A DNA stretch of 64,000 bases from Candidatus Omnitrophota bacterium (GTDB lineage: Bacteria; Omnitrophota; Gorgyraeia; B26-G9): assembly GCA_016213925.1 (NCBI GenBank), contig JACQZH010000041.1, positions 73,352-137,351 on the forward strand. The letters are read 5' to 3'. The notes under the pieces are model-generated. The model had not been told where the DNA came from and did not search any database. It saw nothing but the letters and a program-made list of their open reading frames with translations. Shown here piece by piece: positions 1 through 64,000 of this stretch (the first letter of the stretch is position 1; the number at the start of each line of letters is the position of its first letter). Position numbers and translations under genes: made by a program.

Positions 1-1
1 T

Positions 2-817
2 GAAGGGCTATGGCAAGTTAATGAAACACAGGATGTGTTATCAATAACCATTGATTGGAAAAAAATACCTCTGCGCCAGATCTGGCAAATTAGAAGGATA
101 GAAAACGGATTTAACTGGCTTGTTTATTCGGACGTTAAAGCGCCGCTGAAAATAGAAAAGATAATCGGCGGGATCATGCTTGCTCCGGAATATGAGGAGT
201 GGTTTAATACCGTAGAACAAGGCAGATTCCCGCAATTTAATGAATCGTGGGAGAGTATTTTTTTGCAGGATACTAAAAGTAAAATTATAGGGGTAAAAGC
301 CAATGGGATACTGCCGGCGCTTATTGTAGAGAATTTGCAGCATGGAGAGATATTACTGCAAAATGCTCCGCAGAGCTGCTTAAGCAGGGCTTTACGCGTT
401 GAACTTAAAACACATAATGAGTTATTTGCAGCTAATCGATATAAATCTTTTAACTTGAATTTATACCTGATTTTCGGAGCAAAGAAATGCGAAAATTTTG
501 TTAAGCAGAAAAGCAATCAGCTGCTTAAGTCAAAAGAGCTTGGCGAAGGCAGTTTGCGGCTTAAATTATCCGATTCTTCCGTGCATCTTTTTTGGAATGA
601 TCTGCAGCTAAGCGTAAATCAGGGGCTGCATTCAGCATTGTTGGTCAATAACGAATGGTTTGACTCAAGTAAATGCGATTGGAAAATTGAAAGAATTAAT
701 GATCAATGCATTTATATTGATATTGACTGGAGGCCTCTGCCCGTGAAGCAATCATGGCAGTTAAATATTATCGATGAAAATTCTTTCTCCTGGAAAGTAA
801 AAACGTATTTTAAATAG
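2..817 (+). CDS. Trp-rich repeat-domain protein, 5'-truncated by the window edge; ends at TAG 815-817 but is in frame with the next ORF (probably the same gene)
   Basis: The frame is open from position 2 (EGLWQVNETQDVLSITIDW...). It contains two or more copies of a roughly 110-aa repeat (motifs G-L-W-Y/F-D-S-S...W; IDW..P..Q.W; KAGI.L...Y..WF....G.FP) that recurs in ORFs 839..3409 and 5669..9433. Confidence 0.5.
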   Translation, partial: EGLWQVNETQDVLSITIDWKKIPLRQIWQIRRIENGFNWLVYSDVKAPLKIEKIIGGIMLAPEYEEWFNTVEQGRFPQFNESWESIFLQDTKSKIIGVKANGILPALIVENLQHGEILLQNAPQSCLSRALRVELKTHNELFAANRYKSFNLNLYLIFGAKKCENFVKQKSNQLLKSKELGEGSLRLKLSDSSVHLFWNDLQLSVNQGLHSALLVNNEWFDSSKCDWKIERINDQCIYIDIDWRPLPVKQSWQLNIIDENSFSWKVKTYFK

Positions 818-838
818 GGGAAAACTGATTTAATTAAA

Positions 839-3409
839 ATGCGCTCGCTTGGACTGATTCTAAATCCGCAATATGATAGATGGTTCGGCGGGTACGAATC
901 CGGATTTTTCCCGGCGGAGTTTAGCGGCTGGCGTGAGATGATAGAAGATAAGGAAAACGGCTCGGCTGTAGGAGTTGTCGGTAATGAAAACCTTCCGGCA
1001 GTATTTTTTAAAAATACCGCTGATAATCAGTCAGTGCTTATTGTTCAGAACTCGGATGAAAAGTCAAAAGCCCGGTTTATACAGTCGGTGCTTACAAATG
1101 GAGGAGATATTTCGGGAAAATCTAATAATGAGGCGGATTTTTCCATAGAAATCAGCATTGTTGAGGACAATAGCCGAGTTGCGCAATATCTGGCAAAAAG
1201 GATAGACGAAGAAATTATCAAGAATGGGATTAGTAAGGGAAGTTTGAAATTAATAGCAGACTCCGGGAAAATGCGCACTTTCTGGCAGGGCAGGGAGATA
1301 ACTGCGGATATCGGTTTGCATACGGCAATATGTTCAAGCGGGTATTGGTATGATTCCGGGAAAATGAAGTGGCAATTGGATAAAGTATCGACGGACAAGC
1401 TGCTGATAAAGGTTGATTTTAATCCATTCCCGGCTATACAGACCTGGGAATTATTTCTTGAAGACGAAAAAACTATTTATTGGAATGTTACGATGGAAAT
1501 TTCAAAGCAGGTAGAGATAAGCGAACGCAAAGCAGGGATTATCCTAAATGGCGAGTATAAAGAGTGGTTTAATTCTTTCGAGCAGGGGGAGTTTCCTGAA
1601 CGCTTTACTTTTTGGCATGACATAATCCGCAATCGGGATGGAGAGACTTTCGGGGTTTATCCCGAAAGCGGGCTGCCTGGCGTTATGTTTAGCATAGATG
1701 ATAATCACTTATCGCTAATCCAGAATACGGATGAAAATATTAAAGGGCGTGTTTTTCAAGGGCAGGTAGTGGAAATTGAGCAGACAAAGAAATATTTACC
1801 GCAAAAGTCGCTGGATTATTTTAAAGGGAAAATAAGGCTTGTTGCTGATAAAAAGGAGATAATAGAGCATAAAAAAATTGCGCAGCCGCTTTCTTATAGG
1901 ACAGAGTCAATCTATTTGTATGGAGATTCGAAGGTCTTGCATAACCGTATTGCCAGGTGCGATGAATTCGATGCTAAAATTAAAAAAATCAAAGATTTTA
2001 TTGATCAGGGCATGCCTGTGTCTGTAGTTGTAGGCATTAGCCGTTATAACTTTTTTAAAATTCATGAGATTCTGCAGTTTTTGGCAAATCATCTGGGTAA
2101 AAATGCTGATTTTCGTTCATTTAAGTTATCGGTTTTTCCGCTTAATAAATTACGCAGGAATTTCATTGAGTATCTGGAAGAGCTGAAAAAAATTGCCAAA
2201 AATATCCTTGGCGTGGAATTTGCTTTAGTTGATGAGGAGTTGTTTAATATTATTATTTCGATTGGTTCTCAAGCAGACCAGGGTAATGAACGCCAGCTGT
2301 TAAGGCTTTTGGGAATAATCTCTGAACATGCTTTTATCGGGCCTCAAATCGTCGTTATTGATCCTTACCATAGATGTAATGCCAATTGTATACACTGCTG
2401 GGTGCATACGCCCGGGGTGCATCATTCTAAAGAATATTATGATACAAAGCTTGATTTGAAAAAATTTAAAAGCATCGCGGATGATTTAGCAGAACTAATG
2501 ACTGATCTGATTATTTTCCAGGGCGACGGAGAACCATTGATGAATGATGAATTTTTTGACATGGTTCGTTATGCCAGAGGAAAAGGGATTAAAGCATCTT
2601 TCTTCACAAACGGTATTTTGCTTAATAAAGATATCGCTAAAGAAGTTATTGAGATGGGAGTTGATGAAATCTTTTGCAGTTTGCCGGCAGGTACTGCTGA
2701 TACGTTTGCTAAAATAAATACAAAACAAAAACCTGAAATATTCTTGAAAGTGCTTGATAATCTAAAATATCTTTGCCAATTGAAAAAGAAAATGCCGGTG
2801 AATAAGCCGCGGCTGATTATGACACATGTCATACACAACATGAACGCGCATGAGCTGATTGAGATGGCAAAGAATGATATTGCTATAGGTGCTGATATAA
2901 TGAGGTTTTACCTTATCAGGCTTGATGAGAATATTGAATTTTTAAGATTAAACGCGGAAAACGTTAAAGATGTGAAGCGTTCTTTGCCGCAAATAAAAGA
3001 GATGGCCAAGGGCAAAAGCATTCAACTGCTGGATACAACGGAATTTCAGCTTAGTAATTTTGAGGAAAATACCGGCGCGTGGTCAAAGGATGTCTTCCTG
3101 AATAATGGCTGCACCTTGGGCTGGAATTTTTCTTTAATTCCCGCTTCCGGAGAGGTGAGTTTCTGCTGTCATTTACGTACAGTTGGTTATCTTGAAAAAA
3201 TGTCATTTAAGCAGATTTGGGATTCTCAAGAGTACAGGCAGTTCCGTTATCAGGCAAAATTTTTGAAGAAAAATGCCAAGACTAAATTCTTAAATGGGAC
3301 AACGATGTTTGACGATTACTGCCAGCATTGCGATACGCACCAGGTTATCCGTGATGTCTGGGATCAGTTTAAATTATACAAACTGGAAAAATTTTTCAAT
3401 GAAACATAA
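839..3409 (+). CDS. repeat-domain / radical SAM-SPASM fusion protein (continuation of the preceding ORF, same frame)
   Basis: N-terminus carries about 3 copies of the Trp-rich repeat (GYWYDSGKMKWQL...FPAIQTWELF...KAGIILNGEYKEWF). Radical SAM cluster motif CNANCIHC (CxxxCxxC) and GDGEP glycine-rich motif. C-terminal Cys-rich SPASM/twitch-like region (GCTLGW...SFCCHL...CQHCD). Confidence 0.7.
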   Translation: MRSLGLILNPQYDRWFGGYESGFFPAEFSGWREMIEDKENGSAVGVVGNENLPAVFFKNTADNQSVLIVQNSDEKSKARFIQSVLTNGGDISGKSNNEADFSIEISIVEDNSRVAQYLAKRIDEEIIKNGISKGSLKLIADSGKMRTFWQGREITADIGLHTAICSSGYWYDSGKMKWQLDKVSTDKLLIKVDFNPFPAIQTWELFLEDEKTIYWNVTMEISKQVEISERKAGIILNGEYKEWFNSFEQGEFPERFTFWHDIIRNRDGETFGVYPESGLPGVMFSIDDNHLSLIQNTDENIKGRVFQGQVVEIEQTKKYLPQKSLDYFKGKIRLVADKKEIIEHKKIAQPLSYRTESIYLYGDSKVLHNRIARCDEFDAKIKKIKDFIDQGMPVSVVVGISRYNFFKIHEILQFLANHLGKNADFRSFKLSVFPLNKLRRNFIEYLEELKKIAKNILGVEFALVDEELFNIIISIGSQADQGNERQLLRLLGIISEHAFIGPQIVVIDPYHRCNANCIHCWVHTPGVHHSKEYYDTKLDLKKFKSIADDLAELMTDLIIFQGDGEPLMNDEFFDMVRYARGKGIKASFFTNGILLNKDIAKEVIEMGVDEIFCSLPAGTADTFAKINTKQKPEIFLKVLDNLKYLCQLKKKMPVNKPRLIMTHVIHNMNAHELIEMAKNDIAIGADIMRFYLIRLDENIEFLRLNAENVKDVKRSLPQIKEMAKGKSIQLLDTTEFQLSNFEENTGAWSKDVFLNNGCTLGWNFSLIPASGEVSFCCHLRTVGYLEKMSFKQIWDSQEYRQFRYQAKFLKKNAKTKFLNGTTMFDDYCQHCDTHQVIRDVWDQFKLYKLEKFFNET

Positions 3410-4376
3410 GAACATTACTTTTTTATTCCAAGGAAGAAGGTTTTCTTTAAGCTTGGGCGGAAAACTTTGTTTGCTTGTGATAAGTATTTGTTTTGCGTTA
3501 ATGATTGCTGAGCTTGCAGTACGGGTATTTGTTAAGGTTCCATTGAAGAAAGAGTATATGAGGTTTGCTAGTTTGAATTACGCTTTTATCCCTGAAGCAA
3601 TGCGGGATAAAGAACTGCTTTGGCTGCCGCGCAAGTATATTAGACAGACAAAATATCAAAAAGATAATAATAGTAGGATAATTTGCATAGGGGATTCTAA
3701 TACTGAAGGCCATAGCAGCCTAAGGATAGAGCAAACTTATCCTTATGCATTGGAGAAAATTTTTAAACAAGAAGGGCATAACAAAACGGTTGAAATTATA
3801 AATGCCGGTTCTTCAGGATATAGTTCTTTTCAGGGGCTGGCGTATTTACGCAAAGAAATTTATAAATATGAGCCTGATTTAGTGATTAGCTGGTTTGGAG
3901 TGCAGGATAGTTCCTGCGCCTGGTTTTATGAAGATAAAGCGCAGGATGCCTTAGAATATCCGGATGATAATAATAGTTTAATGAATTCCAGCAGGTTCTA
4001 TTTATTTATAAAAAATTTTTTCTTTTTAAGTGAAACCTTAAGGAAAAAAATTCCGCGTGTTTTGCCGCAAGATTACATGGCTAATTGCCGCGAAATGCTG
4101 AAGATTTCCAAAGAAAAAGGATTTAAAATGGCATTCATTGTGCCGTTTCACTTAGATTTAAAAAAAAATAAGGTTTTTTATTATGAAGAATATAAAGAAT
4201 TATTGTTGTCACTTGAAAAAGAAACAGATTGTTTGATTATAGATGTTGTCCCCTATTTGTTTGGAAAGAATATAAAAGAGTTATTTTTGGATAGTTGCCA
4301 TCCTAGCGGTAAAGGCAATGATTTTATTGCCGGTATTGTATTTAACGATTTGAAACATAAACAGTTGTTTAACTGA
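3399..4376 (+). CDS. membrane-anchored SGNH/GDSL family hydrolase
   Basis: N-terminal TM helix. Block I ICIGDSNTEG (GDS), block III NAGSSGYSS, block V DSCHPSGKGN (DxxH). Start trimmed to ATG 3399, in frame and overlapping the upstream stop by 11 nt. Confidence 0.65.
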   Translation: MKHKNITFLFQGRRFSLSLGGKLCLLVISICFALMIAELAVRVFVKVPLKKEYMRFASLNYAFIPEAMRDKELLWLPRKYIRQTKYQKDNNSRIICIGDSNTEGHSSLRIEQTYPYALEKIFKQEGHNKTVEIINAGSSGYSSFQGLAYLRKEIYKYEPDLVISWFGVQDSSCAWFYEDKAQDALEYPDDNNSLMNSSRFYLFIKNFFFLSETLRKKIPRVLPQDYMANCREMLKISKEKGFKMAFIVPFHLDLKKNKVFYYEEYKELLLSLEKETDCLIIDVVPYLFGKNIKELFLDSCHPSGKGNDFIAGIVFNDLKHKQLFN

Positions 4377-4406
4377 AAATAAGCGTTGAAAAATTAAAAA
4401 TTTCCG

Positions 4407-5396
4407 ATGAGATTGAGATTTGCTTTTGGCAGGCATAAATATAGAGTCAAAAAAATAACACTGGTTTTTTTGTTTGGCACAGCTTTATTAGCAGCGTTAT
4501 TTTTAAGCGAGATCTTGGTCAGGTGTTTGTTTTCTTTTCCCGAAAGGGGATTTTATTTTAAATTCCGCCATATTAAAAATTTTTATATACCGCAAAGATT
4601 ACTGGATGGGGAATTATTTTGGAAGCCAAAACCTGAATTCCTAGGCTTAAAGTACGCGGAAAAAAAAGGCGATGGCGTTTTTCGGATTATTTGTATCGGA
4701 GATTCGGTAACGCAAAGTTATGATATTTCAGGCAGGCCTCAACCGCTAAAACAGACTTATCCCTATCAGTTGCAGTCTTTGCTTGAACGAATTATCGGTA
4801 AAGGCAGGGTTGAGGTTTTAAATGCCGGGATTGGAGGGTACAGTTCTCTTCAGGGACTTAGGTATTTACAGCGCAGTTTATGGAAATATAATCCGGATTT
4901 AGTGATAAGCTGGTTTGGTGTAAATGACCATAGTTTGGCTTTATTCTATCCGGATAAGGAGCAGCGGCTGTTTGTGAGTGCTGATATTAGGAAAAAAAAA
5001 TTACTTGAAAACAGTGCGTTATTTCTTTTTTTGAGGAATGAATTTTTTATAAAAAAAAAGCAGCGCGTGTCACCTGCTGAATATTTTGCTAATTGCGAGC
5101 AAATGGTGTTATTGGGAAAGGAAAAAAAATTTAAAATAATTTTTATCGCGCCATTTGAATATGAAAAAAAAATAAAGCGGGCAAATTATTATGACGAGTA
5201 TAAGCATGTATTGGAACTTTTGGCGGTAAAATATAATATAAGGGCCTTCGATATTTTACCGGCAGTTTGCATGTCTACGGATGCGGGCAATGTTTTTATA
5301 GATAATTGCCATTTTAATCCGGATGGCAATGCTATTGTTGCCAAGGCGATTTTTAATTTTTTGAAAGATGAGGAGTTTATACAAAGGTTAAAATAG
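4407..5396 (+). CDS. membrane-anchored SGNH/GDSL family hydrolase (tandem paralog of 3399..4376)
   Basis: ICIGDSVTQS, NAGIGGYSS, DNCHFNPDGN; N-terminal TM helix. Contains three A9 homopolymer tracts. Confidence 0.65.
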   Translation: MRLRFAFGRHKYRVKKITLVFLFGTALLAALFLSEILVRCLFSFPERGFYFKFRHIKNFYIPQRLLDGELFWKPKPEFLGLKYAEKKGDGVFRIICIGDSVTQSYDISGRPQPLKQTYPYQLQSLLERIIGKGRVEVLNAGIGGYSSLQGLRYLQRSLWKYNPDLVISWFGVNDHSLALFYPDKEQRLFVSADIRKKKLLENSALFLFLRNEFFIKKKQRVSPAEYFANCEQMVLLGKEKKFKIIFIAPFEYEKKIKRANYYDEYKHVLELLAVKYNIRAFDILPAVCMSTDAGNVFIDNCHFNPDGNAIVAKAIFNFLKDEEFIQRLK

Positions 5397-5684
5397 ATGA
5401 AAATTTTACTTGTTAATTTACCTTGGAAAAATGCTGATAGATGGGGAGTGCGTGCCGGATCGCGCTGGCCGCATATAAAGGACGCGACCGAAGAAAATTA
5501 TCTGGCTTTTCCGTTTTATCTTGCGTATGCCGCGGCGCTATTAAGAAAAAATGGTTTTGATGCAGTGATTATTGACGCGATAGCGCAACGGCTTTCCTAT
5601 GGTGATTTTTTAAAAAAAACTGAAGAACTAAAGCCTGATTTGCTGGTTGCGGAGACGTCTACAGTACCTTGCTTGAGCTTGTAA
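5397..5684 (+). CDS. N-terminal half of a B12-binding domain; fragment of the disrupted fusion gene that continues in another frame at 5669
   Basis: MKILLVNLPW...LAYAAALLRKNGFDAVIIDA...KPDLLVAETST matches the start of B12-binding radical SAM proteins. It stops at TAA, and the downstream ORF continues the same family alignment in frame +2. Confidence 0.4.
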   Translation: MKILLVNLPWKNADRWGVRAGSRWPHIKDATEENYLAFPFYLAYAAALLRKNGFDAVIIDAIAQRLSYGDFLKKTEELKPDLLVAETSTVPCLSL

Positions 5685-8600
5685 AAGCGCTTGAAAATAA
5701 TAACCCGCTGGGAACAGTGCAAGGGCTTATTTACCGTAATAAATCAGATGTGGTAAAAAACTCGCCGCGTACTTTAATTGCCGATTTGGATCAATTGCCC
5801 TGGCCGCTTCGCGAAGGATTGCCGGTTAAGCGTTACAATGATGCTCCGGGGGATATTCCTATCCCTTGCGCTTCAATGTGGGCAAGCCGTGGATGCCCGT
5901 TTGGCTGTTCGTTCTGTCTTTGGCCGCAGGTAATGTACGGGGGTAATTCTTACCGCGTGCGCAGCGTAAAAAACGTAGTTGATGAAATGGAGTATCTTAT
6001 AAAAGAGTTGGGATTTAAATCCGTATATTTTGATGATGATACCTGGAATATCGGTTCTGAAAGGATTATTGCTTTTTGTGATGAACTGGAGCAAAGAAAA
6101 TTGAATGTGCCGTGGGCAATTATGGCAAGAGCAGAATTGATGAATGAGTATTTACTCGAAAGGATGCGCAAGGCAGGATTGTATGCGGTAAAATACGGGA
6201 TTGAATCATCTTCGCAAAAGATCGTTAATGATACCGGAAAGAGGCTTAATCTTGAAAAAGCGGAGGAGATGATAAGGTATACGAAGTATCTGGGGATAAA
6301 GACTCATTTAACGTTTACTTTTGGATTGCCCGGAGAAACGCAGCAAACAATTAATGAAACAATAGAATATGCTTGCAGGCTTAATCCTACTTCAGTGCAG
6401 TTTTCTCTGGCAACGCCTTTTCCCGGGACAAGATTTTACGATGAAATGGAGAAAAAAGGATATATAGTCTCAAAAGATTTAGAAAAGCTTGATGGTAATC
6501 ACAGCAGCGTGATCAGAACGCAAAGCCTTAGCGCCCGCGAACTGCAGCAAGCGAAGAAAAAAGCTTATATAACTTGGAATAGGCATTGCCGGTTTAAACG
6601 GCAAAGGCTAAAATTTCCTCAAAAAACTATAAAGGAAAAATTTGACGCTTCATTGCTGGAATACGGGTTATTTTATACAACAATGAAAATTTTGCGTTAT
6701 ATTTTGAGGCGTTTGCTGATTATCCCGTGGAAAATCCGCAGCTTTTTTAATGCAAATCTCTGGATTATAGAAGAAATTATAACTGCCGGGAATATTTCGA
6801 TTAAGTTCGGCGAAGGGCAAGTGCGCGTATACTATAATAATATAGAAATTTCAAAAGGGATCGGGATTACGGCTTCATTTTATTACGGAGAACGTTGGTT
6901 TGATTCTTCTCGGGCTAACTGGAAGCTTGAGAAAGATTCAGAGAAAAGCATAAGAGTTAAATTGACCTGGGATGATATCCCCATACGGCAATCATGGACA
7001 ATTTTGATTGGTGAAGAAGGGAAAATAAGCTGGAATAGCAAGCTTCAAGTACAAACTGCAGTACAGCTGCTTGAGTATAAGGCTGGAATCATGCTTCAGG
7101 AGCAATATACTAGATGGAAAGATGAACTTGGTGTTGGAAATTTCCCGAAAATAACTCAATGGGAAGAAATTGAATTATATAACGCTAATTCCCGCAGGCT
7201 TTTTGTTTTTAAAGAGGCTGCGGAAAGTAATAGCCAGATGCCGGAAGTCGAATTAGCGCTGAAAACAGCAAACAGGCCAAACATATATCCGCAGATACAA
7301 AATACTGATATAAAAACGAATGCTCGGATTATTCAGATGCGCAGTTTGCGAATTGAGCAGTTTGTCCCGGGAGAATATGCATATTTTGATCTGGAAATAT
7401 TTTTGCATAAAAAAAACTTGATAGCGCAGAATGTATCTGCGCTTAAGAAAAGAACTCCTTTAGGAATAATTAAGGCGCAGATTGCTCAAAATGGGGCTTC
7501 TACGGTGCTGCGTAAAATTATTAAAAACCTGCATCCGGTAAAACTTTCGGATTATTATACGGATATTGTCGGAGTTATGGACGGTTCCTATGCGTATAAG
7601 GGGCCTTATTGCGTGCAAATCGATCTGACCAACGATTGTAATAACGATTGTGTCGGCTGCTGGTGTAATTCACCGCTTTTGAAAGAGCGAAAAATCAGCA
7701 AGGAGATAAAGCAGCAGGCATTACCTTTGGATGTAGTGAAAAAAACAATTGATGATTTGGCGCTAATGGGAACTAAAGAGATATATTTTGCCGGAGGCGG
7801 AGAGCCGTTTATGCATGCGCATATTATGGAGATACTTGAATATGTCAAAGCTAAAGGATTAAAGTGTTATATAAATACAAACTTTACGTTGGTAACCGAA
7901 AATATGGTTAAACGGCTTGTGGAGATTGGAGTTGATCATTTGGTTGTAAGTGTATGGGCAGGAACTGCACAGACATATAAGCTTACGCATCCCAATAAGT
8001 CAGAAGAGATGTTTTATCAGATAAAAGGGATGTTAAAGCTGCTTAATTCTTTAAAGGACAATGTGCCGCAGGTTAATGTGTATAACATTATTTTTAACCG
8101 GAACTTTAAAGAATTGCCGCAGATGGTTGATTTCGCGCTTGAAGCCGGAGCCGATTCACTTGAATTTACGGTTATTGACACGATCCCTGAAGCGACGGAT
8201 ACACTGATTTTGGACGAAGGACAACGTTTACAGGTTTGCGGTGATTGTGAGAATATTCAAAAACGTTTGGAAGGTGAGCTTAAGGGAAAGATAAAAATTC
8301 TTCAGTTTGAGCAATTCTTGCGCCGCGTGAATAATAACGCCGCGCAAAAAGCTGAATATGATGATAATATTCTCGCGGAAATACCGTGTTATATCGGTTG
8401 GATTTTTGCCCGGATACTTGCTGACGGAAATGTTAACTTTTGCCTGAAAGCGCATCGTATTCCGGTGGGGAATATTTACGCGCATTCTTTTTCGCAAATC
8501 TGGAATAACCGCAAGCAACAGGAATTCCGTATAAGAGCACTGTGCCAGGAAAAAACCGATCCATTTTTTTCGTTTATTGGGAATGATCCGAATGTTCAGG

Positions 8601-13301: not shown

Positions 13302-13493
13302 AATTGAATATTAATTAAATGTTAATAAATGATAAAAGTGCTATTGAATTATCGCAGTAATCGGTAAGTGTGATTATTTTAAGCAATTTTAATCTGTCTG
13401 TGCCGAAGTTTCAGCGGACGAGTTTTTCTGAATTGCCTATAGGCTTGTGGTGGAAAAAGTTCTACTATTCGAATTATTTGATTGAGGGTTGAA

Positions 13494-18716: not shown

Positions 18717-19261
18717 ATAATTTACTTAAAAAAAGTTATGAGCGGATTAGCAAAGTATTTTTGGAGAATATTAAGATTGGCGAAAATGCCAAAGTCCTTG
18801 ATATAGGCTGCGGATTAAAAGGAAATTTCATTAAAATACCGGGTGCTAATTATGTGGGCATCGATTTAAATAAATATATGATTGAGAATAACAGCTGTAA
18901 AGGTGACGGCTATTATATGGTTATGGATGCAAAACATATGGCTTTTAAGGATAACTCATTTGATTATATTATTTCCACCAGTTTTTTTCATCATTTTAAT
19001 GACGAGGAATGCGTAGCTATTTTAAGAGAGACAAACAGAATTCTCAAGAAAAAGGGAAAATTGATTGTTGCAGACGGAGTGTTCCCTTCCTCTTTATTTA
19101 ATTTTTTTGGCTGGGCTATCCGTATTTTTGACAGGGGCAGGTATGTGCGAAGTATTCAGGGGCTGCTAAAAATTTTTAATAAAACTTTTAGCATTATAAA
19201 AAAAGATTATTTTGCGGATAATATATTTACGTACGGGGTTTTTGTAATGGAGAAAGAATAA
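18713..19261 (+). CDS. class I SAM-dependent methyltransferase
   Basis: Motif I VLDIGCGLKGN; small Rossmann-like methyltransferase architecture. ATGA overlap with the upstream gene. Confidence 0.5.
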   Translation: MNNLLKKSYERISKVFLENIKIGENAKVLDIGCGLKGNFIKIPGANYVGIDLNKYMIENNSCKGDGYYMVMDAKHMAFKDNSFDYIISTSFFHHFNDEECVAILRETNRILKKKGKLIVADGVFPSSLFNFFGWAIRIFDRGRYVRSIQGLLKIFNKTFSIIKKDYFADNIFTYGVFVMEKE

Positions 19262-57098: not shown

Positions 57099-58157
57099 AT
57101 GAAGTCATTACATAAAAGCAATATTGACGCGATGTTCAATATCTGGAATGACATGTATTCTCTTATCGAGTTTCGACGCTGCACGCGTTGCCTTCTGCCT
57201 GAAACAATGCCGGGTATTGTTTTTGATACTCAGGGAGTATGTAATTATTGTAATTTATATAAGAAACGAGTAATGCCAGAAGATATCTTGTTGGATGAAA
57301 TTTTAGCTCCGTATCGGAAAAAAGGTACTGATCCGGATTGTATTGTTGCCTTAAGTGGGGGAAGGGATAGTTCTTTTGGGTTGCACTATGTTAAAAAAGT
57401 TCTTGGGTTAAAACCGGTTGCGTATACCCATGACTGGGGATTAATCCCGGACATAGCAAAACGAAATCAAAAAAAAATGTGTGATTCTTTAGGTGTTAAG
57501 CATGTTATTACCTATGAAAATGCGAAAAAAATCCGAAAAAATCTTTTGAAGAATATCAAGGCATGGCTTAAAAAGCCTGCGTTGGGAATGCTTCCGTTGC
57601 TGATTTCTGCAGATAAAAAACCGTATTATTATGCGCATAAGATTAAGAAGAGTACAGGGATAAAATTAATGGTTGCTTGTTTGGGGCATAATTATGAGGT
57701 GCCGGCTCTTAAAATGGGGTTTTGCAATATTTTCAACAAATATCCGAGGCTGACTCATGAAATCTCGTCGCCTGATAAATTAAGGCTTGGGTTATATTAT
57801 TTTAAACAGTGTTTAGCGAATCCCTTATATATCAATAGTTCGTTATTAGATACTTTGCATGGATATGCGTCTATGTTTTTCTTACCGATTCAAACGAATG
57901 GCGATGTTTTATTGTTTAAGTATATAAAGTGGGATGAGCAGGAGATTACAAAAACATTAATTAATAATTATGGGTGGGAATGCCCTTCTAATACTAAGCT
58001 CATCTGGAGGATGAGTGATGTGGCTTCATTTTTTCATAGTTATATTTATTTAGCTGTTGCCGGATTTACCGAAAATGATACTTTTCGCAGTGCTCAAGTC
58101 CGCGATGGCGTTATGGATAGGGAAGAAGATCGGAAGAGCGTCTGTAGGGAAAGATAA
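57099..58157 (+). CDS. N-acetyl sugar amidotransferase (WbuX/PseA-like PP-loop ATPase)
   Basis: N-terminal zinc-ribbon-like CTRC...CNYC followed by PP-loop IVALSGGRDSSF. AGAGGA RBS upstream. Confidence 0.6.
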   Translation: MKSLHKSNIDAMFNIWNDMYSLIEFRRCTRCLLPETMPGIVFDTQGVCNYCNLYKKRVMPEDILLDEILAPYRKKGTDPDCIVALSGGRDSSFGLHYVKKVLGLKPVAYTHDWGLIPDIAKRNQKKMCDSLGVKHVITYENAKKIRKNLLKNIKAWLKKPALGMLPLLISADKKPYYYAHKIKKSTGIKLMVACLGHNYEVPALKMGFCNIFNKYPRLTHEISSPDKLRLGLYYFKQCLANPLYINSSLLDTLHGYASMFFLPIQTNGDVLLFKYIKWDEQEITKTLINNYGWECPSNTKLIWRMSDVASFFHSYIYLAVAGFTENDTFRSAQVRDGVMDREEDRKSVCRER

Positions 58158-58167
58158 TAGGTGATTT

Positions 58168-59595
58168 ATGAAGGTTGTATTTGTTCAGGCTCCTGCAACA
58201 CGGATACGTTATAATGTGGGGGGGGCTTTTTCTATTCTTCCTCTAGGTATTGCCTATCTGGCAAGACAGTTGAAAAATAATAATATTGATTTTGAGTTTT
58301 TTTATCCGCGAAGACAGGGGGATTTTTTTTCTGAATTCCAAAAATACATGAACGGGTTTTCCGGGCAACAGATCCTTGTGGGAATTTATACAACATTATT
58401 TAGTGCCCGAGAAGCTTTTTGTTTGGCACAGGTCGCTAAGAATAGTAATAAAAAAAACGTTACCCTGTTAGGCGGTCCTGTAACTTCCTTTTCTCCGGAT
58501 TCGATTTTCAGATTTTCCGATTGGATTGACTTTATTATATCAGGAGACGCTGAAGATACGCTTATGCCGCTTATTTTTTCATTACCGCAGAGCAAATTTG
58601 ATTCTGTCTCAAATATTTCTTACAGGCATAATGGCAGGGTTATCTCTAATAACTGTAAGGAGATTGGGGATTTAGACGCCCTTGGTTTTGCCATGAGAGA
58701 AGCATTTCCGATGCATTTGCATAAATTATATCCGCCAATGGGCAGGTACGCTCCAGCGTATCTGGTAGAAACAATGCGAGGATGCGGTTTTTCTTGTGGA
58801 TTTTGCTCTTTACCTAAGATAGCAAGAGTTCGTTCTGTAGATATTGTTATTAATGAATTGAACTTGCTTAAAAAGGAGTTTAAGGCCAGGGAGGGACATT
58901 TTATTGACCCTACTTTTACTTTTCGAAAAGAAAGAACTATGGAATTATGCCAGAGAATTGTCGAAAGAAAGATAGATATAGCTTGGTCATGTAAAACGAG
59001 GGTGGATTGTTTAGATGAGGAGTTGATTCAACAAATGAAGAAAGCAGGGTGTTATATGATTCATTTCGGGGTAGAGTCTCCAAATGAACATATTCTTAGT
59101 AAAATTAATAAAGGACATTCCAGGGATCAGATTTGCGCCGCATTTCTAATGTGTAATAAATACAAGATCAAAACTGGAGCTTTTATGATTATGGGAGCGA
59201 CTCGATTTGAGAATAAAAAAACAGTAAATGAGGCGATAAGTTTTATTAGAAAAATTAAACCCACATTTGTTTTGTATGACCAGATAAGGCCGATTCCTGG
59301 TAGCGCCTTAACTGTTAATGCCCAAAGAGACGGGATAATAACCCAGAATGATATAGAACAGTTTTATCTTGGAGATAAAACTCAAAGTAAGTTGCATAAG
59401 ATTACGGTAACGGGTATTACTAAAACACAAGTAGAGCAATGGGTATCCAGGGCTTCAAGGGCTTTTTATTTATCTGGGCAATTGTTATGGCGTATGCTCT
59501 GTAGCCTTAAAACCGTGAATGACTGGATAAATGCTTTTAGGGCAGGAATATTTTATTTTTCTGATATGACATGGGGTGGAAATGCAAAAGTTTGA
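58168..59595 (+). CDS. B12-binding radical SAM protein
   Basis: LLGGPVTSFSPD...FIISGDAEDTLMPL; MRGCGFSCGFC. Confidence 0.7.
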   Translation: MKVVFVQAPATRIRYNVGGAFSILPLGIAYLARQLKNNNIDFEFFYPRRQGDFFSEFQKYMNGFSGQQILVGIYTTLFSAREAFCLAQVAKNSNKKNVTLLGGPVTSFSPDSIFRFSDWIDFIISGDAEDTLMPLIFSLPQSKFDSVSNISYRHNGRVISNNCKEIGDLDALGFAMREAFPMHLHKLYPPMGRYAPAYLVETMRGCGFSCGFCSLPKIARVRSVDIVINELNLLKKEFKAREGHFIDPTFTFRKERTMELCQRIVERKIDIAWSCKTRVDCLDEELIQQMKKAGCYMIHFGVESPNEHILSKINKGHSRDQICAAFLMCNKYKIKTGAFMIMGATRFENKKTVNEAISFIRKIKPTFVLYDQIRPIPGSALTVNAQRDGIITQNDIEQFYLGDKTQSKLHKITVTGITKTQVEQWVSRASRAFYLSGQLLWRMLCSLKTVNDWINAFRAGIFYFSDMTWGGNAKV

Positions 59596-61132
59596 TGTTG
59601 TGCTTATTCATCAACCATTAGAAACGTATAAGGGGATTACGTATAATATGCAACCAATCGGGTTGTTCAGTATCGCTGACTTTCTTGAACGTCATGGCAT
59701 TAGAGTAAGAATTATTAATATTGGAGTTGAAAAAAGATTGAATCAAAGTTTTTCCATCATTGATTATATTTTATCTACAGAGGCTAAGATCGTAGGAATA
59801 AGTATTCATTGGTATGTAACATTATATAATGCTCTTGTTATTGCTAAGGAAATTAAAATAAAAAGCAATGTGAAAATTGTTTTGGGTGGGTATACTGCTT
59901 CAATTTTTGCTAAAGAAATTATAAAGAAGTATGATTTTATTGATGCGGTTATTAATGGGGAGGGGGAAACTCCTTTTTTGATATACTCACAGTCAGTATT
60001 AGGCCAAGGGCCTTCTTTTAGCCAAATTCCCAATCTTGTTTTTCGTAATCATAATAGAGAGGCGCAAAGCAATTGTTGTTATTATGCAACGGCATTAGAA
60101 CTGGATAGTTTTGATTTTTCCAACATACAGCTTTTAAATAATTATGATACCTATTTTCACATGGCTTCTTTGAGTCCGATTGCTACCAGTCATCCAATGT
60201 CATTGAAAGTAACTTCTGATGTTTTGTTATGTGTGGGGAGAGGATGTGATAATACTTGTTATAATTGTGGGGCAAGTAGAACAGCGCTTAAAAAAACAAA
60301 TTTTTCATCAAAGGTGCGTTATCGTAATCATTCAATTGTAATTAAAGAAATAAAAAAATTCCTTGAATTGGGATATGATAACTTTTCTATCGTGTATAAT
60401 CCGGATGATGATTTTAGCTACTATTTAGGTTTATTCCAATTAATGCGAGATGAAAATATTAAAATAGGAATGAGTTTTGACTGTTGGTTTTTTCCACCGC
60501 AAAAGTTTATTGATGCATTTGCGGAAACATTCGATTTAGATCGAAGTAAACTGGGGATAACTATTGAAAGCGGATTGGAACGTACCCGCAAGAAGTATAC
60601 TAAGGTGCAAGCATCAAACGCCCAAATCATGCAGTTATTAGATTTTATTAGGGGCAAAGGGATATATGTACATACTTTTTTTACTGTTTGCATACCTGGT
60701 GAAACCGAAAATGATATAAAGGAAATGGTCTCTTTTATGCAGAGAGTTATAGATAAAAGTGATTGGTTTACTATTAATGCAATACCTATAGAACCGGCAG
60801 CAGAAATTGAACAAAATGCGCAACAATATGGAGTAAAAGTATATAGGAAGACATTAGAAGATTATTTAAGCTTTGCAAATGAGATGGCTGATTGTAAATA
60901 TCCGCTACATCCTCTGGGATATGCTACTAATGATATGACGGAAGAGGGATTGGAAAAGATTAAACTAAAACTATTTTTCTACTGTTATACGAATTGGCGC
61001 TATATCAGCAAGTTCTGTTGCGCTAACGCAAAAAATAGACGGCTGATAGCAACTAGTTTGGCTTGGTTGGGGTTGCTTTTTAATTCGCCTCGGATGTTTC
61101 ATCGTTATGCTCCTCCGGCCTTAGGCGCGTAA
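59582..61132 (+). CDS. B12-binding radical SAM protein
   Basis: VLGGYTASIF...AVINGEGETPFLI; GRGCDNTCYNC. Start set to the ATG 6 nt inside the ORF-track GTG. Confidence 0.6.
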   Translation: MQKFDVVLIHQPLETYKGITYNMQPIGLFSIADFLERHGIRVRIINIGVEKRLNQSFSIIDYILSTEAKIVGISIHWYVTLYNALVIAKEIKIKSNVKIVLGGYTASIFAKEIIKKYDFIDAVINGEGETPFLIYSQSVLGQGPSFSQIPNLVFRNHNREAQSNCCYYATALELDSFDFSNIQLLNNYDTYFHMASLSPIATSHPMSLKVTSDVLLCVGRGCDNTCYNCGASRTALKKTNFSSKVRYRNHSIVIKEIKKFLELGYDNFSIVYNPDDDFSYYLGLFQLMRDENIKIGMSFDCWFFPPQKFIDAFAETFDLDRSKLGITIESGLERTRKKYTKVQASNAQIMQLLDFIRGKGIYVHTFFTVCIPGETENDIKEMVSFMQRVIDKSDWFTINAIPIEPAAEIEQNAQQYGVKVYRKTLEDYLSFANEMADCKYPLHPLGYATNDMTEEGLEKIKLKLFFYCYTNWRYISKFCCANAKNRRLIATSLAWLGLLFNSPRMFHRYAPPALGA

Positions 61133-61222
61133 CATGGTAATTAAGGCAAATAGTATAAAATCCTTGCTAGTTGACGCGTAAAATAATATATGGCTTTATT
61201 GTTCGATGTTAAGATTTAAATT

Positions 61223-61909
61223 ATGAAATTATCAATTATAATTCCCGTTTATAATGAAGAGAAAACACTTGAGGTGTTATTATCGAAGCTAAATAAATTA
61301 CAACTCAATGGAGTTGAGAAAGAAACCATTATTGTTGATGATGGCTCTATAGATAAGACAAAAGAGATTATAAAGAAGTTTACCCAGGGAAAGATAGTAA
61401 AGTTGTGCCACGAAAATAATCTAGGGAAAGGTTCAGCTGTACGGACAGGGTTAAAGCGTGCGACTGGTGATTATGTTATAATTCAGGACGCTGATCTAGA
61501 GTATAATTCTGATGATTACGAGAAACTTGTTGAGCTTGCAAGGGAAAAAAATGCTGATGCAGTTTATGGATCGCGGTTTATTTTAAAGAATAATTATTTC
61601 GATCCATTATATTACCTGGCTAATAAATTGCTTACTGTTTTGACAAATATTCTTTATAACAGCAATTTAACAGATATGGAAACTTGCTATAAACTTTTTA
61701 AGCGTGATGTGTTTATAAGCTTGAGCTTGGAATCAAACGGTTTTGAGTTTGAGCCTGAAGTGACCGCAAAAGTTTTACTAAAAAGTATAAAAATACATGA
61801 AGTACCGATCACCTATCGTGCGCGGGAAGTGAATTCGGGGAAAAAAGTTAAGTTTATGGATGGAGTGAAGGCTGTTTATGTGCTTATAAAGTATAGATTT
61901 TTTTATTAA
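61223..61909 (+). CDS. GT2 Dpm1-like polyprenyl-phosphate sugar synthase
   Basis: LSIIIPVYNEEKTLE, VDDGSIDKT, IQDADLEY. Confidence 0.65.
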   Translation: MKLSIIIPVYNEEKTLEVLLSKLNKLQLNGVEKETIIVDDGSIDKTKEIIKKFTQGKIVKLCHENNLGKGSAVRTGLKRATGDYVIIQDADLEYNSDDYEKLVELAREKNADAVYGSRFILKNNYFDPLYYLANKLLTVLTNILYNSNLTDMETCYKLFKRDVFISLSLESNGFEFEPEVTAKVLLKSIKIHEVPITYRAREVNSGKKVKFMDGVKAVYVLIKYRFFY

Positions 61910-61974
61910 AAAAGCGGATATGTAGGTATTGCTTTTTTATTATGATAATGGCTGTTGATTCTATTAGGAGAAAA

Positions 61975-63441
61975 ATGAAAGTCGCTTTTGTAAATAATGG
62001 AACTGAGAGTTTAGGAGTAGGGTATTTAGCCGCATTTTTAAAGAAACAAGGGCATACAGTTAAAGTTTTTAACGATCCGCAATTATTCAGCGATGAATAT
62101 ATTAATAATAAGCATCTAAATAGAATTTTTAGTTTTCAAAAACAATTAATAAATGATGTAATTAATTTTTCTCCGGATTTAATTGGGTTCTCTGTTCTTA
62201 CGGATTACTATGAATGGGCTTGTTATTTAGCAGCGGAATTAAAAAAAAGATTGGCCAGGCCGATTATATTTGGGGGGATTCATCCGACATCTGTACCGGA
62301 AGAAGTATTGAAGAATAATTTTGTAGATATGGTTTGCATCGGAGAAGGGGAATTGGCGCTTTTGGATGTTGTGGAAAAATTGGAAAAAAGTTCTTGGCCG
62401 TATAATGTGTTAAACATTTGGACGAAAGATGGGCAGAAGATAATAAAAAATAAAATCAGGCCGTTGATAGACGACTTGGGTAAATTACCTTATCCGGACA
62501 AAACAGTATTTTATGAGGTTAGTCCATACTTCAAAACAGCATATTTTACAATAGCAAGCCGAGGATGCTTATATAAGTGTTCTTATTGTTGCCATTCTTA
62601 TTTGCGAGAAATATATCCAGAAACATGTTATTATCGTATTAGAAGTGTTGAAAATTTAATTGGTGAATTAGAGTGTTATCGGGTTAAAGATAAATATAAA
62701 GTTATTCGTTTTGTTGATGACATATTCCCTTCCGATAAAAAATGGTTAAGTGAATTTTCTAAGGTGTATTCAAAACGCATAGGAGTGCCTTTTATTTGTT
62801 ATATTCATCCCAGCGTTGCCAGGGAGGAACAAATATTATTATTAAAAAAAAGCGGGGCTTGTGAGATCGTGATCGGCGTGCAGACTTTATTTGAGAATAC
62901 CCAGAAAGAAGTATTAAACAGGCAAATTAATATTGATAATTGGGAGAGGACAATTTTATGTTTAAAGGAACATAAAATTTTTGTTACCGCAGAGAATATG
63001 ATAGGTATTCCGGGACAATGCATAGACGAGATAAAAGAGTTAGTGAAATTTTATTGTCGGAATAAGGTTGGCCGGATACATGTTAATTGGTTGCGTTATT
63101 ATCCAAAAACAAAGATAACCGATAAGTTTGGCCAAGGTATGCAGGGAATTAGGAAAAGAGATATAAAACCATTTACTCTTGGGGGTGATGTTTTTAATGA
63201 AGAACTAAATAAAATGAGGGTTATTTTTGCGCTCATAAATTTTTTGCCTAACAAACTGATATGTTTTATATTGCGAAGTAATGTTTATAAATATCTGCCT
63301 TCTTTCCCCTTGGTTTTTATTAATATTTTTTCTAATCTTAAAAGTGGCGCTGCTTCTAATAAAATTACGCGGAAAAGGGAATTTCTTAGATATTATACAT
63401 ATATAAAAAAGAAGAAGATTATTGACTCGGTTCTTTTTTGA
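61975..63441 (+). CDS. B12-binding radical SAM protein
   Basis: IFGGIHPTSVPEE...MVCIGEGELALLDV; SRGCLYKCSYC. Start set to ATG 61975, which follows AGGAGA. Confidence 0.65.
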   Translation: MKVAFVNNGTESLGVGYLAAFLKKQGHTVKVFNDPQLFSDEYINNKHLNRIFSFQKQLINDVINFSPDLIGFSVLTDYYEWACYLAAELKKRLARPIIFGGIHPTSVPEEVLKNNFVDMVCIGEGELALLDVVEKLEKSSWPYNVLNIWTKDGQKIIKNKIRPLIDDLGKLPYPDKTVFYEVSPYFKTAYFTIASRGCLYKCSYCCHSYLREIYPETCYYRIRSVENLIGELECYRVKDKYKVIRFVDDIFPSDKKWLSEFSKVYSKRIGVPFICYIHPSVAREEQILLLKKSGACEIVIGVQTLFENTQKEVLNRQINIDNWERTILCLKEHKIFVTAENMIGIPGQCIDEIKELVKFYCRNKVGRIHVNWLRYYPKTKITDKFGQGMQGIRKRDIKPFTLGGDVFNEELNKMRVIFALINFLPNKLICFILRSNVYKYLPSFPLVFINIFSNLKSGAASNKITRKREFLRYYTYIKKKKIIDSVLF

Positions 63442-63466
63442 ATTCTTATTGGGGGAAAGAATTTGC

Positions 63467-63634
63467 ATGATTAAAACTGAAAGAAATAATAAAAGTAAAT
63501 ATGTCCTGAAAGTATATCTTGAGAAATTTAAAGACAAGCGATATCCCAAATGGGAAAAAGTATTTATTTTCTTAATGCTTCTACTTGTTTTTTATTGTGA
63601 AATATTCTTTCGCATGACAATACCAAAATTTTAG
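63467..63634 (+). CDS. possible small single-pass membrane protein (55 aa)
   Basis: GGGGGAAAG RBS-like run 8 nt upstream; basic N-terminus then a hydrophobic helix FIFLMLLLVFYCEIFF. Could be spurious. Confidence 0.25.
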   Translation: MIKTERNNKSKYVLKVYLEKFKDKRYPKWEKVFIFLMLLLVFYCEIFFRMTIPKF

Positions 63635-63705
63635 GTTATGTTTTAAATAAGCATCGTTAGGTGTAGTAAAAGGATTGAATTTTAACAAAATATTTTTGTG
63701 AGCAA

Positions 63706-64000
63706 ATGGGTATTATTTCGTTTAAAATAAGTCAAACTAGAATTGAGTTTTCATTTAAAGCTTTAGCAGTTTTTCTAAAAGCTTTTTATAGTGATAAAAA
63801 AAAGAAAAAAAATTTAATCGAAGAGTTTGAAAAAGCTTTTGCCAAATATGTTGGAGTGAAAAATAGTATTTCTGTTTCTTCCGGGAAAATTGCTTTATGG
63901 TTAAGCCTGCGCGGTTTAAATGCTATAAAAGGCGATGAGATAATAGTTCCGGCTTACACAGTGCCGGAAGTTATTGAAGTGATTTTATTATGCGGACTGC
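63706..64000 (+). CDS. DegT/DnrJ/EryC1-family sugar aminotransferase (3' end beyond the window)
   Basis: LIEEFEKAFAKYVGVKNSISVSSGKIALWLSL...GDEIIVPAYT matches the N-terminal region of PLP-dependent sugar aminotransferases. Confidence 0.55.
   Translation, partial: MGIISFKISQTRIEFSFKALAVFLKAFYSDKKKKKNLIEEFEKAFAKYVGVKNSISVSSGKIALWLSLRGLNAIKGDEIIVPAYTVPEVIEVILLCGL

Follow-up and report, generated by a model that had tools for sequence, protein, structure and literature searches.

A conserved radical SAM-rich locus of Omnitrophota, probably for an exported cell-envelope glycopolymer

In Wzm/Wzt O-antigen pathways, with E. coli O9a and Aquifex aeolicus as models, the C-terminal carbohydrate-binding domain of Wzt recognises a terminal cap. 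Radical S-adenosylmethionine (SAM) enzymes acting on carbohydrates are known singly, from antibiotic pathways, and the known sugar-acting pathways use one to three such enzymes (DesII, AprD4, BtrN, BlsE, GenK/Fom3-type, HpnJ). HpnJ, AprD4, DesII and BlsE act on sugars. BtrN and MoaA are of the one-cluster twitch type, while peptide maturases carry a two-cluster SPASM domain. The subject here is a stretch of 64,000 nucleotides from a Candidatus Omnitrophota genome (assembly GCA_016213925.1, contig JACQZH010000041.1, positions 73,352 to 137,351, forward strand), hereafter the window, in which 18 radical SAM genes lie among genes for glycan synthesis. The phylum Omnitrophota is widespread, and its members are very small bacteria that in part depend on hosts. 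Groundwater Elusimicrobia harbor up to 13 radical SAM genes, some with B12-binding domains, beside nitrogenase paralogs; the context is nifHDK-like, and a tetrapyrrole or cofactor product was proposed (10.1101/765248).

With a probability of roughly 0.7, the window represents the middle and distal portions of a cell-envelope glycopolymer locus that is conserved in Omnitrophota and follows an ATP-binding cassette (ABC)-transporter-dependent (Wzm/Wzt-type) route. It contains 47 open reading frames (ORFs) of at least 150 amino acids (aa), 46 of them on the plus strand, at a coding density of about 96%. Intergenic distances are mostly 0-30 bp or 4-bp overlaps (33 of 46 gaps are at most 30 bp), and the overlaps join several radical SAM genes to glycosyltransferase (GT) or GT-C genes. 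Across the window, radical SAM genes alternate with GT, GT-C and sugar-modifying genes. An initial annotation had described an operon-like array in which the radical SAM genes belong to the glycan locus and not to a separate adjacent cluster. The gene packing, the interleaving and a gene order conserved in other Omnitrophota agree with this description.

All glycan gene classes named initially were recovered with Pfam and NCBIfam. Two GT4 and four GT2 glycosyltransferases are encoded. Three of the GT2 enzymes resemble the polyprenyl-phosphate sugar synthases ArnC, PpgS or AglJ, which are their best matches, yet under the equivalog cutoffs. The GT-C set comprises six PMT_2 proteins, one YfhO protein and one or two further polytopic GT-C-like proteins, with 8-12 transmembrane (TM) helices predicted in a Kyte-Doolittle scan; the PMT_2, YfhO and GT2 matches exceed the Pfam cutoffs. 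The gene set for polyprenyl-phosphate sugar synthesis and GT-C decoration is thus present. In addition, three GDSL proteins have a membrane anchor. Tailoring genes code for a NodU-type carbamoyltransferase, a class I methyltransferase, and AsnB-type and WbuX-like amidotransferases. The inventory is completed by a polysaccharide deacetylase, a NAD-dependent epimerase/dehydratase, a DUF362 protein and the first part of a DegT aminotransferase, whose gene runs past the end of the window.

Eighteen of the 47 ORFs together contain 19 copies of the motif CxxxCxxC, against a chance expectation below 0.1 (about 21,600 residues, about 1.7% Cys). A profile hidden Markov model (HMM) search matched Pfam Radical_SAM (PF04055) to all 18 ORFs, 17 of them above the gathering score. 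The remaining protein, 52945, scored 26.7 against a cutoff of 29.5 bits and has a strong B12-binding match. Two Radical_SAM stretches are located in the 5669 ORF. The earlier count of 19 domains in 18 genes is therefore upheld, and radical SAM genes make up about 40% of the locus genes. Most start coordinates were kept; four were corrected to 17652 (not 17655), 49056 (not 49059), 59576 (not 59582) and 61942 (not 61975). The initial annotation put known glycan loci at one or two radical SAM genes at most; literature searches for glycan loci comparably rich in such genes found nothing. The paralogs within the window share only 21-33% identity, so the multiplicity is ancient and each paralog represents a distinct lineage. 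Recent tandem duplication was rejected as the source of the gene number, since orthologs are 50-68% identical.

Ten genes have the class B (predicted B12-binding) architecture with full-length alignment to B12-radical SAM NCBIfam profiles, the number given at first. PF02310 is above cutoff in six (9435, 46004, 52945, 55620, 59576, 61942) and sub-threshold in three (24793, 51091, 58168), which align end to end. The tenth gene is split by a frameshift into an N-terminal fragment (5397-5684) and a body (5669-9433), in which the HpnJ profile starts from position 134. The DxHxxG motif is absent from the B12-type proteins of the window; class B enzymes usually lack it, and its absence is uninformative. 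In 9435, 46004, 51091, 52945, 55620 and 61942, a hydrophobic segment of 19 residues (Kyte-Doolittle) is located about 30-70 aa before the C-terminus. These predicted segments may mediate membrane association, which would suit lipid-linked substrates.

Eight C-terminal Cys-cluster domains had also been listed. PF13186 (SPASM) is above cutoff in 839, 5669, 17652, 40589, 49056 and 54470. No SPASM match was obtained for 28830 and 33596, which carry 6-9 downstream Cys. The canonical CX2CX5CX3C motif of the two-cluster SPASM type is absent in all eight domains. A hairpin motif, CX9-15GX4C, is present in seven proteins, and a downstream C-x2-C pair in 839, 17652, 33596, 40589 and 49056. The downstream pattern is less clear in 5669 (C-x3-C) and 54470 (one later Cys), while 28830 has six downstream Cys and leaves the hairpin motif unmatched. 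The auxiliary layout, CX17C and then a later CxxC pair, is that of a predicted one-cluster twitch domain as in BtrN and MoaA.

The curated NCBIfam equivalog cutoffs were reached by no radical SAM protein of the window. The B12-type equivalogs compared were HpnJ, BchE, HpnR, PhpK, the AprD4 family, the ladderane type and Ta0216. The best case was 224.8 against 577.6 bits (HpnJ, 5669), all others being lower. HpnJ was the best NCBIfam match of the 5669 N-terminal core, 24793, 46004 and 58168, and BchE that of 51091, 52945 and 55620. Among solved structures, 55620 is closest to AprD4 (E 7e-21), followed by OxsB and TokK; 33596 is closest to SkfB, CteB and BlsE.

The fusion of a Gfo/Idh/MocA oxidoreductase with a radical SAM domain at 41624, noticed at the outset, was recovered by Pfam. 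Its N-terminal half is closest to sugar 3-dehydrogenases. The radical SAM half lacks auxiliary Cys and matched DesII as sole solved structure (E 2e-8); with 62.4 bits against a cutoff of 450, it falls outside the DesII family TIGR04426. A word-indexed search of 5.8 billion sequences found this architecture in only four proteins. 41624 clusters with MBI4846226.1, which has the same length of 824 aa. A homolog of the fusion in locus L086 adjoins PMT_2 and epimerase genes, and a scan of genome contigs with the fusion gave no match. The protein is 96% identical to MBI4651996.1 on an 8.3-kb contig labelled Candidatus Desantisbacteria, which points to a very recent transfer or else to a conflict in taxon label or binning.

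The 839 and 5669 proteins and the ORF that ends at 817 have in common a repeated unit of about 200 aa, termed DUF-X. Three copies are present in the 1180-aa radical SAM-twitch proteins and one after each radical SAM domain of 5397/5669. Searches of Pfam, including Wzt_C, even at E up to 1, and of PDB sequences yielded no match. Structural comparison assigned DUF-X to the galactose-mutarotase-like supersandwich fold of aldose 1-epimerases and of glycoside hydrolase and polysaccharide lyase N-domains, and nearly all of the top 60 matches were carbohydrate-active proteins. At the near-invariant positions, aromatic or polar residues predominate (W, W, Y, F, N, R), the look of a sugar-binding face. 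DUF-X is a candidate new carbohydrate-binding module. A profile search of 1.84 billion representative proteins retrieved 679 members, and those with a taxon name are Omnitrophota, plus one Hydrogenedentes. Among the best 150, about 88 are ABC ATPases with repeats, about 11 contain radical SAM domains and 50 showed DUF-X units only by local HMMs. A Pfam scan of five of these 50 identified four PMT_2 GT-C proteins with C-terminal DUF-X and one protein with no match. Two more of the best 150 were scanned and also combine PMT_2 with DUF-X, giving six such proteins in total.

Wzt-like ABC ATPases carry two to eight DUF-X units after the nucleotide-binding domain, and no Wzt_C-type domain was detected on this extension by Pfam. 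The ATPase domain of locus L001 matches Aquifex aeolicus Wzt (E 3e-64), then TarH/TagH and mycobacterial RfbE. An ABC2_membrane permease and a Wzt-like ATPase head the loci L001, L003 and L088, both lying outside the sequence covered by the window, and an HMM of the nucleotide-binding domain matches 16 of the 30 Omnitrophota loci L006-L035. In three proteins (P0032, P0034, P0035), an ABC ATPase, two DUF-X units and a radical SAM-SPASM part form one chain, which retains Walker A, signature, Walker B and CxxxCxxC. In L088, an ABC-DUF-X-DUF-X-radical SAM-SPASM fusion directly follows the Wzm-like permease and precedes three more radical SAM genes. By the Rosetta-stone argument, these fusions are evidence that one molecule is both the substrate of the radical SAM step and the exported one. 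Together with the shared domain of carbohydrate-binding type, they tie the radical SAM enzymes to a Wzm/Wzt-exported glycan.

Part of the layout is conserved within the phylum. The 839 protein is 100% identical to MBI4846194.1 and the 24793 protein to MBI4846211.1; both lie with MBI4846226.1 on a single contig of a Candidatus Omnitrophota MAG. About 20 homologs of 839 (1176-1206 aa, 51-68% identity) were found, all taxon-named ones from Omnitrophota, and orthologs of 24793 (60-66% identity) share contigs with this family. Contig JBDRPX010000003.1 (L001 and L004, 70.8-119.4 kb) is collinear gene by gene with 1-34.6 kb of the window, as are two JGI contigs (L003, L005). Across the collinear genes, amino acid identity is 27-70%, and the loci differ only by gain or loss of tailoring genes. 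A GT2 and the carbamoyltransferase are present in the window, L010, L013 and L014 and absent from L001, while L004 has one DegT, one B12-type and one small radical SAM gene in addition. The loci of the relatives extend about 10 kb further upstream than the first gene of the window and open with an ABC2_membrane permease, an ABC ATPase of 1337-1359 aa and five small radical SAM genes. Over the whole island, radical SAM genes therefore probably number at least 23.

Among GTDB species representatives, a profile-seeded scan recovered full-length relatives of the hallmark gene from about 30 genomes, all Omnitrophota, with a few auto-labelled Planctomycetia. Local HMMs, which recover 18 of 18 in the window, counted 7-11 radical SAM ORFs per Omnitrophota locus with full 23-kb coverage. 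Control loci of other phyla, fetched via a distant radical SAM match only, had a median of one. Two further contigs were observed. The first 18136 positions of CAZYIM010000012.1, a metagenome-assembled genome (MAG) contig of an 'uncultured Methanosarcinales archaeon' (L047), are Omnitrophota-like and encode nine radical SAM ORFs besides GDSL and PMT_2 proteins; one B12-type enzyme is 41% identical to 61942 of the window. The contig may belong to an epibiont and have been mis-binned, or the locus may have been transferred between Omnitrophota and their methanogen hosts. JAFCCU010000016.1 of Candidatus Woesearchaeota (L036, 1-16472) carries eight radical SAM ORFs in 16 kb of a DPANN contig, so radical SAM-dense loci are not confined to Omnitrophota.

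Other products were considered for this gene set. The radical SAM enzymes might mainly modify a lipid and not the sugars, be it the carrier polyprenol, a lipid of the membrane or the lipid-proximal portion of a glycolipid, in the manner of hopanoid side-chain, GDGT or ladderane-type chemistry; the glycan genes would then make the head group. Several B12-type enzymes have HpnJ, HpnR or a 'lipid biosynthesis B12-binding/radical SAM protein' as best NCBIfam match, GDGT-MAS and the tetraether lipid synthase Tes also appear as weak matches, and six B12-type enzymes carry the hydrophobic segment near the C-terminus. 'Ladderane' clusters have also been reported in Omnitrophota by genome mining (PMC9902471). 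However, the matches are far under the curated cutoffs (e.g. 225 vs 578 bits for HpnJ), and Pfam found no fatty-acid, isoprenoid or squalene-cyclase genes in the window. The site of action of HpnJ itself is the sugar moiety of a glycolipid, and the DUF-X supersandwich with a Wzt-type exporter points to a polymeric glycan. A lipid as the main target is thus unlikely, though some of the enzymes may act on one. A secreted oligosaccharide or aminoglycoside-like natural product, instead of a structural envelope polymer, would agree with the closest characterised relatives AprD4, DesII and BlsE being antibiotic-pathway enzymes, and with the NodU-type carbamoyltransferase, the DegT aminotransferase and the many tailoring enzymes. 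It is rendered quite improbable by a core that is conserved and collinear in about 30 species of one phylum, by the Wzm/Wzt exporter at the head of the related loci, eight GT-C proteins and three polyprenyl-phosphate sugar synthases typical of envelope glycans, and by the lack of Pfam matches to resistance, regulator or aminocyclitol synthase genes in the window.

Modification of a protein or peptide (an S-layer or pilin glycoprotein, or a ribosomally synthesised and post-translationally modified peptide, RiPP), then glycosylated by the PMT-like GT-C enzymes, would be compatible with curated SPASM families, which are mostly peptide maturases, with weak NCBIfam and PDB matches to SkfB, CteB, PqqE and StsB, and with protein O-mannosyltransferases in the PMT_2 family. 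Against it, no intergenic gap of the window holds a precursor-like ORF, and Pfam detected no RiPP recognition element (RRE)/PqqD, protease or peptidase, peptide-exporter or leader-processing domain. In six small radical SAM enzymes, CxxxCxxC lies 34-68 residues from the N-terminus and therefore leaves no room for an RRE domain; the two-cluster motif is lacking, and DUF-X is shared with a polysaccharide-type ABC ATPase. A peptide substrate is thus very unlikely, and a separate RiPP cluster, the alternative named at the outset, was rejected on these grounds together with interleaving and synteny. Maturation of a cofactor or tetrapyrrole, as proposed for the Elusimicrobia suites with their up to 13 radical SAM genes near nif paralogs (10.1101/765248), would fit the top NCBIfam matches of the twitch-type enzymes (tungsten-cofactor maturase, AhbD, NirJ, MoaA). 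These scores are 3-10 fold under the cutoffs, and neither the window nor the syntenic loci contain nif-like, tetrapyrrole or molybdopterin genes. This pathway was rejected as hardly conceivable.

Several points weigh against the glycopolymer interpretation itself. No reaction is assignable, because no radical SAM protein reaches an NCBIfam cutoff. Sugar binding by DUF-X is only predicted, and the supersandwich fold occurs also in the YidC P1 domain, which does not bind sugar. The Wzm/Wzt genes are not within the window, and their upstream presence in this genome follows from synteny. This synteny reaches 1-34.6 kb only, while the second half holds ten radical SAM genes; no fetched locus covered 34.6-64 kb, and a metagenome scan with 61942 gave matches at 24% identity only. 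Finally, two DUF-X-bearing radical SAM genes are interrupted in this MAG.

In the glycopolymer pathway as envisaged, cytoplasmic GT4 and GT2 enzymes would build a polyprenol-linked glycan from nucleotide sugars. Before that, the aminotransferase, epimerase, amidotransferases, carbamoyltransferase and deacetylase, together with the Gfo-DesII-like fusion, would tailor these nucleotide sugars. Radical chemistry on sugars in the cytoplasm would be the task of the radical SAM enzymes, about 18 of them encoded in the window and at least 23 in the island. The B12-type enzymes would mostly perform C-methylation or rearrangement, the one-auxiliary-cluster twitch-type enzymes oxidation, epimerisation, dehydration or decarboxylation. 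Some would act on nucleotide sugars, whereas the large ones would act on the lipid-linked polymer, gripped via their DUF-X modules. With the same modules, the Wzt-like ATPase would read the finished polymer and export it. Outside the cytoplasm, the eight GT-C enzymes would add branches from polyprenyl-phosphate sugars supplied by the three ArnC/PpgS-like GT2 enzymes, and the membrane-anchored GDSL enzymes would edit acyl groups. A multiply C-methylated, cross-linked or deoxygenated glycoconjugate, as suggested in the initial annotation, would be one outcome of such chemistry. The locus thus points to a surface glycan whose radical-chemistry modifications would far outnumber those of any glycan described to date.

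More tentatively, Omnitrophota might couple radical SAM chemistry to polysaccharide export, a proposal that is possible but doubtful at present. The DUF-X modules of radical SAM enzymes, ATPase and periplasmic GT-C proteins would then hold one polymer. A radical SAM domain on the exporter ATPase would set a chain-terminating or export-licensing mark comparable to the WbdD cap, and about twenty distinct modifications would be installed by radicals. If true, the product would be a surface glycan with C-methyl, deoxy, epimerised, keto or cross-linked sugars; no precedent for such chemistry has been described. The radical SAM enzymes belong to deeply diverged subfamilies, none assignable to a characterised family, and the surface sugars of Omnitrophota would be made by chemistry uncatalogued in glycobiology. 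Full-text literature searches turned up no account of DUF-X or of a locus of this type. The locus offers about 20 candidate sugar-modifying radical enzymes, a candidate carbohydrate-binding module and natural exporter-enzyme fusions, all amenable to heterologous expression without culturing the organism. Genome-mining rules keyed on B12-radical SAM genes ('ladderane' or RiPP calls) may misclassify such loci.

Two genes are disrupted. An in-frame TAG at 815-817 cuts the first gene inside DUF-X unit 2, whereas the roughly 20 relatives are intact at 1176-1206 aa. Recoding of TAG was rejected, as TAG terminates 6 of the 47 window genes; the stop marks a pseudogene, or else it stems from strain heterogeneity or from faulty assembly. 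In the 5397/5669 gene (5397-5710), about 50 aa of the B12-binding core are missing relative to the L001 ortholog and the reading frame shifts, so that the B12 domain is disrupted in this assembly; orthologs have 1399-1443 aa. Both disruptions may be assembly errors or real decay. The ORF at 33410-33586 is a remnant of a WbqC glycan gene, not a precursor peptide.

The sole minus-strand gene, B12-type 51091, adjoins the largest gap of the window (396 bp), which suggests a divergent internal promoter region. A consensus scan for promoters and terminators in 33.1-53 kb gave no matches above shuffled expectation. Neither Rfam families, including cobalamin and SAM riboswitches, nor tRNAs were found in the window. 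GC content is 37-40% in 1-16 and 54-58 kb and 32-34% in 16-22, 36-54 and 60-64 kb, with a GC skew of about +0.2 along the whole window. No syntenic relative was found for the second half, which is also the one with the lower GC content. The proteins 34650 and 44270, each with an N-terminal TM helix and a weak DUF3108-like match, may be paralogous extracytoplasmic components of the pathway. All features are listed in Table 1.

Table 1. Features of the 64,000-nucleotide window, with positions, strand, and evidence or remarks.
Feature	Position	Strand	Evidence or remark
DUF-X(x3)-radical SAM-twitch gene, N-terminal part	2..817	+	off window start; stops at TAG in DUF-X unit 2; DUF-X HMM
Remainder of DUF-X(x3)-radical SAM-twitch gene	839..3409	+	rest of DUF-X unit 2, unit 3 aa 137-338, linker
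Domains of 839 protein	Radical_SAM aa 509-676 (CNANCIHC at 513); twitch-like SPASM aa 758-811	+	Pfam
GDSL/SGNH hydrolase, N-terminal membrane anchor	3294..4376	+	Pfam, TM scan
GDSL/SGNH hydrolase, N-terminal membrane anchor	4407..5396	+	Pfam, TM scan
B12-binding N-terminal fragment of large double-radical SAM gene	5397..5684	+	PF02310 18.5 bits; cut off by deletion and frameshift
Body of large double-radical SAM gene	5669..9433	+	B12-type core (CPFGCSFC at 76), DUF-X aa 377-583
C-terminal part of 5669	radical SAM-twitch (CNNDCVGC at 657; SPASM 907-959), second DUF-X aa 1050-1254	+	Pfam, DUF-X HMM
B12-binding radical SAM enzyme	9435..11084	+	Pfam, NCBIfam
GT4 glycosyltransferase	11141..12316	+	Pfam
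ArnC-like GT2 (polyprenyl-phosphate sugar synthase), C-terminal TM helices	12201..13301	+	Pfam, TM scan
NodU-type carbamoyltransferase	13482..15182	+	Pfam
Unknown 260-aa protein, one N-terminal TM helix	15175..15957	+	Pfam, TM scan
GT-C (PMT_2), about 9 TM helices	15976..17655	+	Pfam, TM scan
Radical SAM, twitch-like SPASM	17652..18716	+	4-bp overlap with both flanking genes
Class I SAM methyltransferase	18713..19261	+	Pfam
GT-C (PMT_2)	19269..20687	+	Pfam, TM scan
GT-C (PMT_2)	20684..22192	+	Pfam, TM scan
GT-C-like 9-TM protein	22217..23701	+	weak PMT_2 match; paralog of 19269, 20684
GT4 glycosyltransferase	23705..24796	+	Pfam
B12-type radical SAM	24793..26259	+	best NCBIfam HpnJ, below cutoff
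GT2 glycosyltransferase	26259..27155	+	Pfam
DUF362 protein	27152..28264	+	Pfam
Unknown 186-aa protein, N-terminal TM helix	28254..28814	+	TM scan
Radical SAM, 333 aa, Cys-rich C-terminus	28830..29831	+	Pfam, NCBIfam
GT-C (PMT_2)	29848..31434	+	Pfam, TM scan
AsnB-type glutamine amidotransferase, XrtA-system-like	31453..33357	+	Pfam
WbqC-family remnant, 58-aa ORF	33410..33586	+	last ~45 profile positions only, PF08889, 45 bits
Radical SAM, 336 aa, twitch-like C-terminus	33596..34606	+	Pfam, NCBIfam
Unknown, N-terminal TM helix, weak DUF3108 match	34650..35519	+	TM scan
YfhO-family GT-C	35516..37327	+	Pfam, TM scan
GT-C (PMT_2)	37418..39007	+	Pfam, TM scan
Polysaccharide deacetylase, XrtA-system-like	39004..39846	+	Pfam
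PpgS/DPM1-like GT2 (polyprenyl-phosphate sugar synthase)	39862..40563	+	Pfam
Radical SAM, twitch-like SPASM	40589..41488	+	Pfam, NCBIfam
Gfo/Idh/MocA NAD oxidoreductase + DesII-like radical SAM fusion	41624..44098	+	no auxiliary Cys
Unknown, N-terminal TM helix, weak DUF3108-like match	44270..44974	+	TM scan
GDSL-like hydrolase, N-terminal anchor	45064..46023	+	sub-threshold Pfam match
B12-binding radical SAM	46004..47446	+	Pfam, NCBIfam
Unknown 9-TM membrane protein, 538 aa; possibly GT-C, polymerase or ligase-like	47443..49059	+	TM scan
Radical SAM, twitch-like SPASM	49056..50075	+	Pfam, NCBIfam
NAD-dependent sugar epimerase/dehydratase	50080..51123	+	Pfam
B12-type radical SAM, only minus-strand gene	51091..52548	-	Pfam, NCBIfam
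B12-binding radical SAM	52945..54468	+	Radical_SAM score just under Pfam cutoff
Radical SAM, twitch-like SPASM	54470..55543	+	Pfam, NCBIfam
B12-binding radical SAM	55620..57068	+	closest solved structure AprD4
WbuX-like N-acetyl-sugar amidotransferase	57099..58157	+	NCBIfam
B12-type radical SAM	58168..59595	+	Pfam, NCBIfam
B12-binding radical SAM, Ta0216-like	59576..61132	+	Pfam, NCBIfam
AglJ/ArnC-like GT2 (polyprenyl-phosphate sugar synthase)	61223..61909	+	Pfam
B12-binding radical SAM	61942..63441	+	Pfam, NCBIfam
DegT-type sugar aminotransferase, N-terminal 98 aa	63706..64000	+	off window end

The comparison with described systems shows likeness and difference in each case. The Elusimicrobia suites, the nearest precedent found, come from a sibling phylum in the same kind of habitat and also gather many radical SAM genes in one neighbourhood; the Omnitrophota locus differs by its glycan assembly and export context and by the lack of nif-like genes. 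With the antibiotic-pathway enzymes and HpnJ, which tailors hopanoid glycolipids, it shares the nearest relatives of 41624, 55620, 33596, 5669 and 24793, namely DesII, AprD4, BlsE and HpnJ, although identities are low and scores far under the family cutoffs. The one-cluster auxiliary Cys layout is that of BtrN. In contrast to DesII- or AprD4-type pathways, 18 radical SAM enzymes are encoded in the window and at least 23 in the island, some fused to DUF-X or Gfo/Idh/MocA domains.

Pairs such as ArnC/ArnT, GtrB/GtrC and CsbB/YfhO are mirrored by the three ArnC/PpgS/AglJ-like GT2 enzymes beside PMT_2 and YfhO proteins. Unlike in these pairs, eight GT-C-like genes are combined in one locus, which is unusually many, and some GT-C proteins of Omnitrophota bear DUF-X. 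As in Wzm/Wzt systems, the syntenic loci start with an ABC2_membrane permease and a Wzt-matching ATPase, followed by GT4 and GT2 genes, and the ATPase has a C-terminal extension of carbohydrate-binding-type fold. This extension consists of 2-8 DUF-X supersandwiches of about 200 aa, not of the Wzt_C jelly roll. A WbdD-type kinase/methyltransferase terminator as in E. coli O9a was not seen. Unlike in Wzm/Wzt systems, DUF-X occurs also on radical SAM and GT-C enzymes, and some ATPases carry a radical SAM domain. The pathway type, an ABC-transporter-dependent glycan with GT-C decoration, is known; what appears to be new is the extent of radical SAM tailoring, the sharing of one supersandwich module and the exporter-radical SAM fusions.

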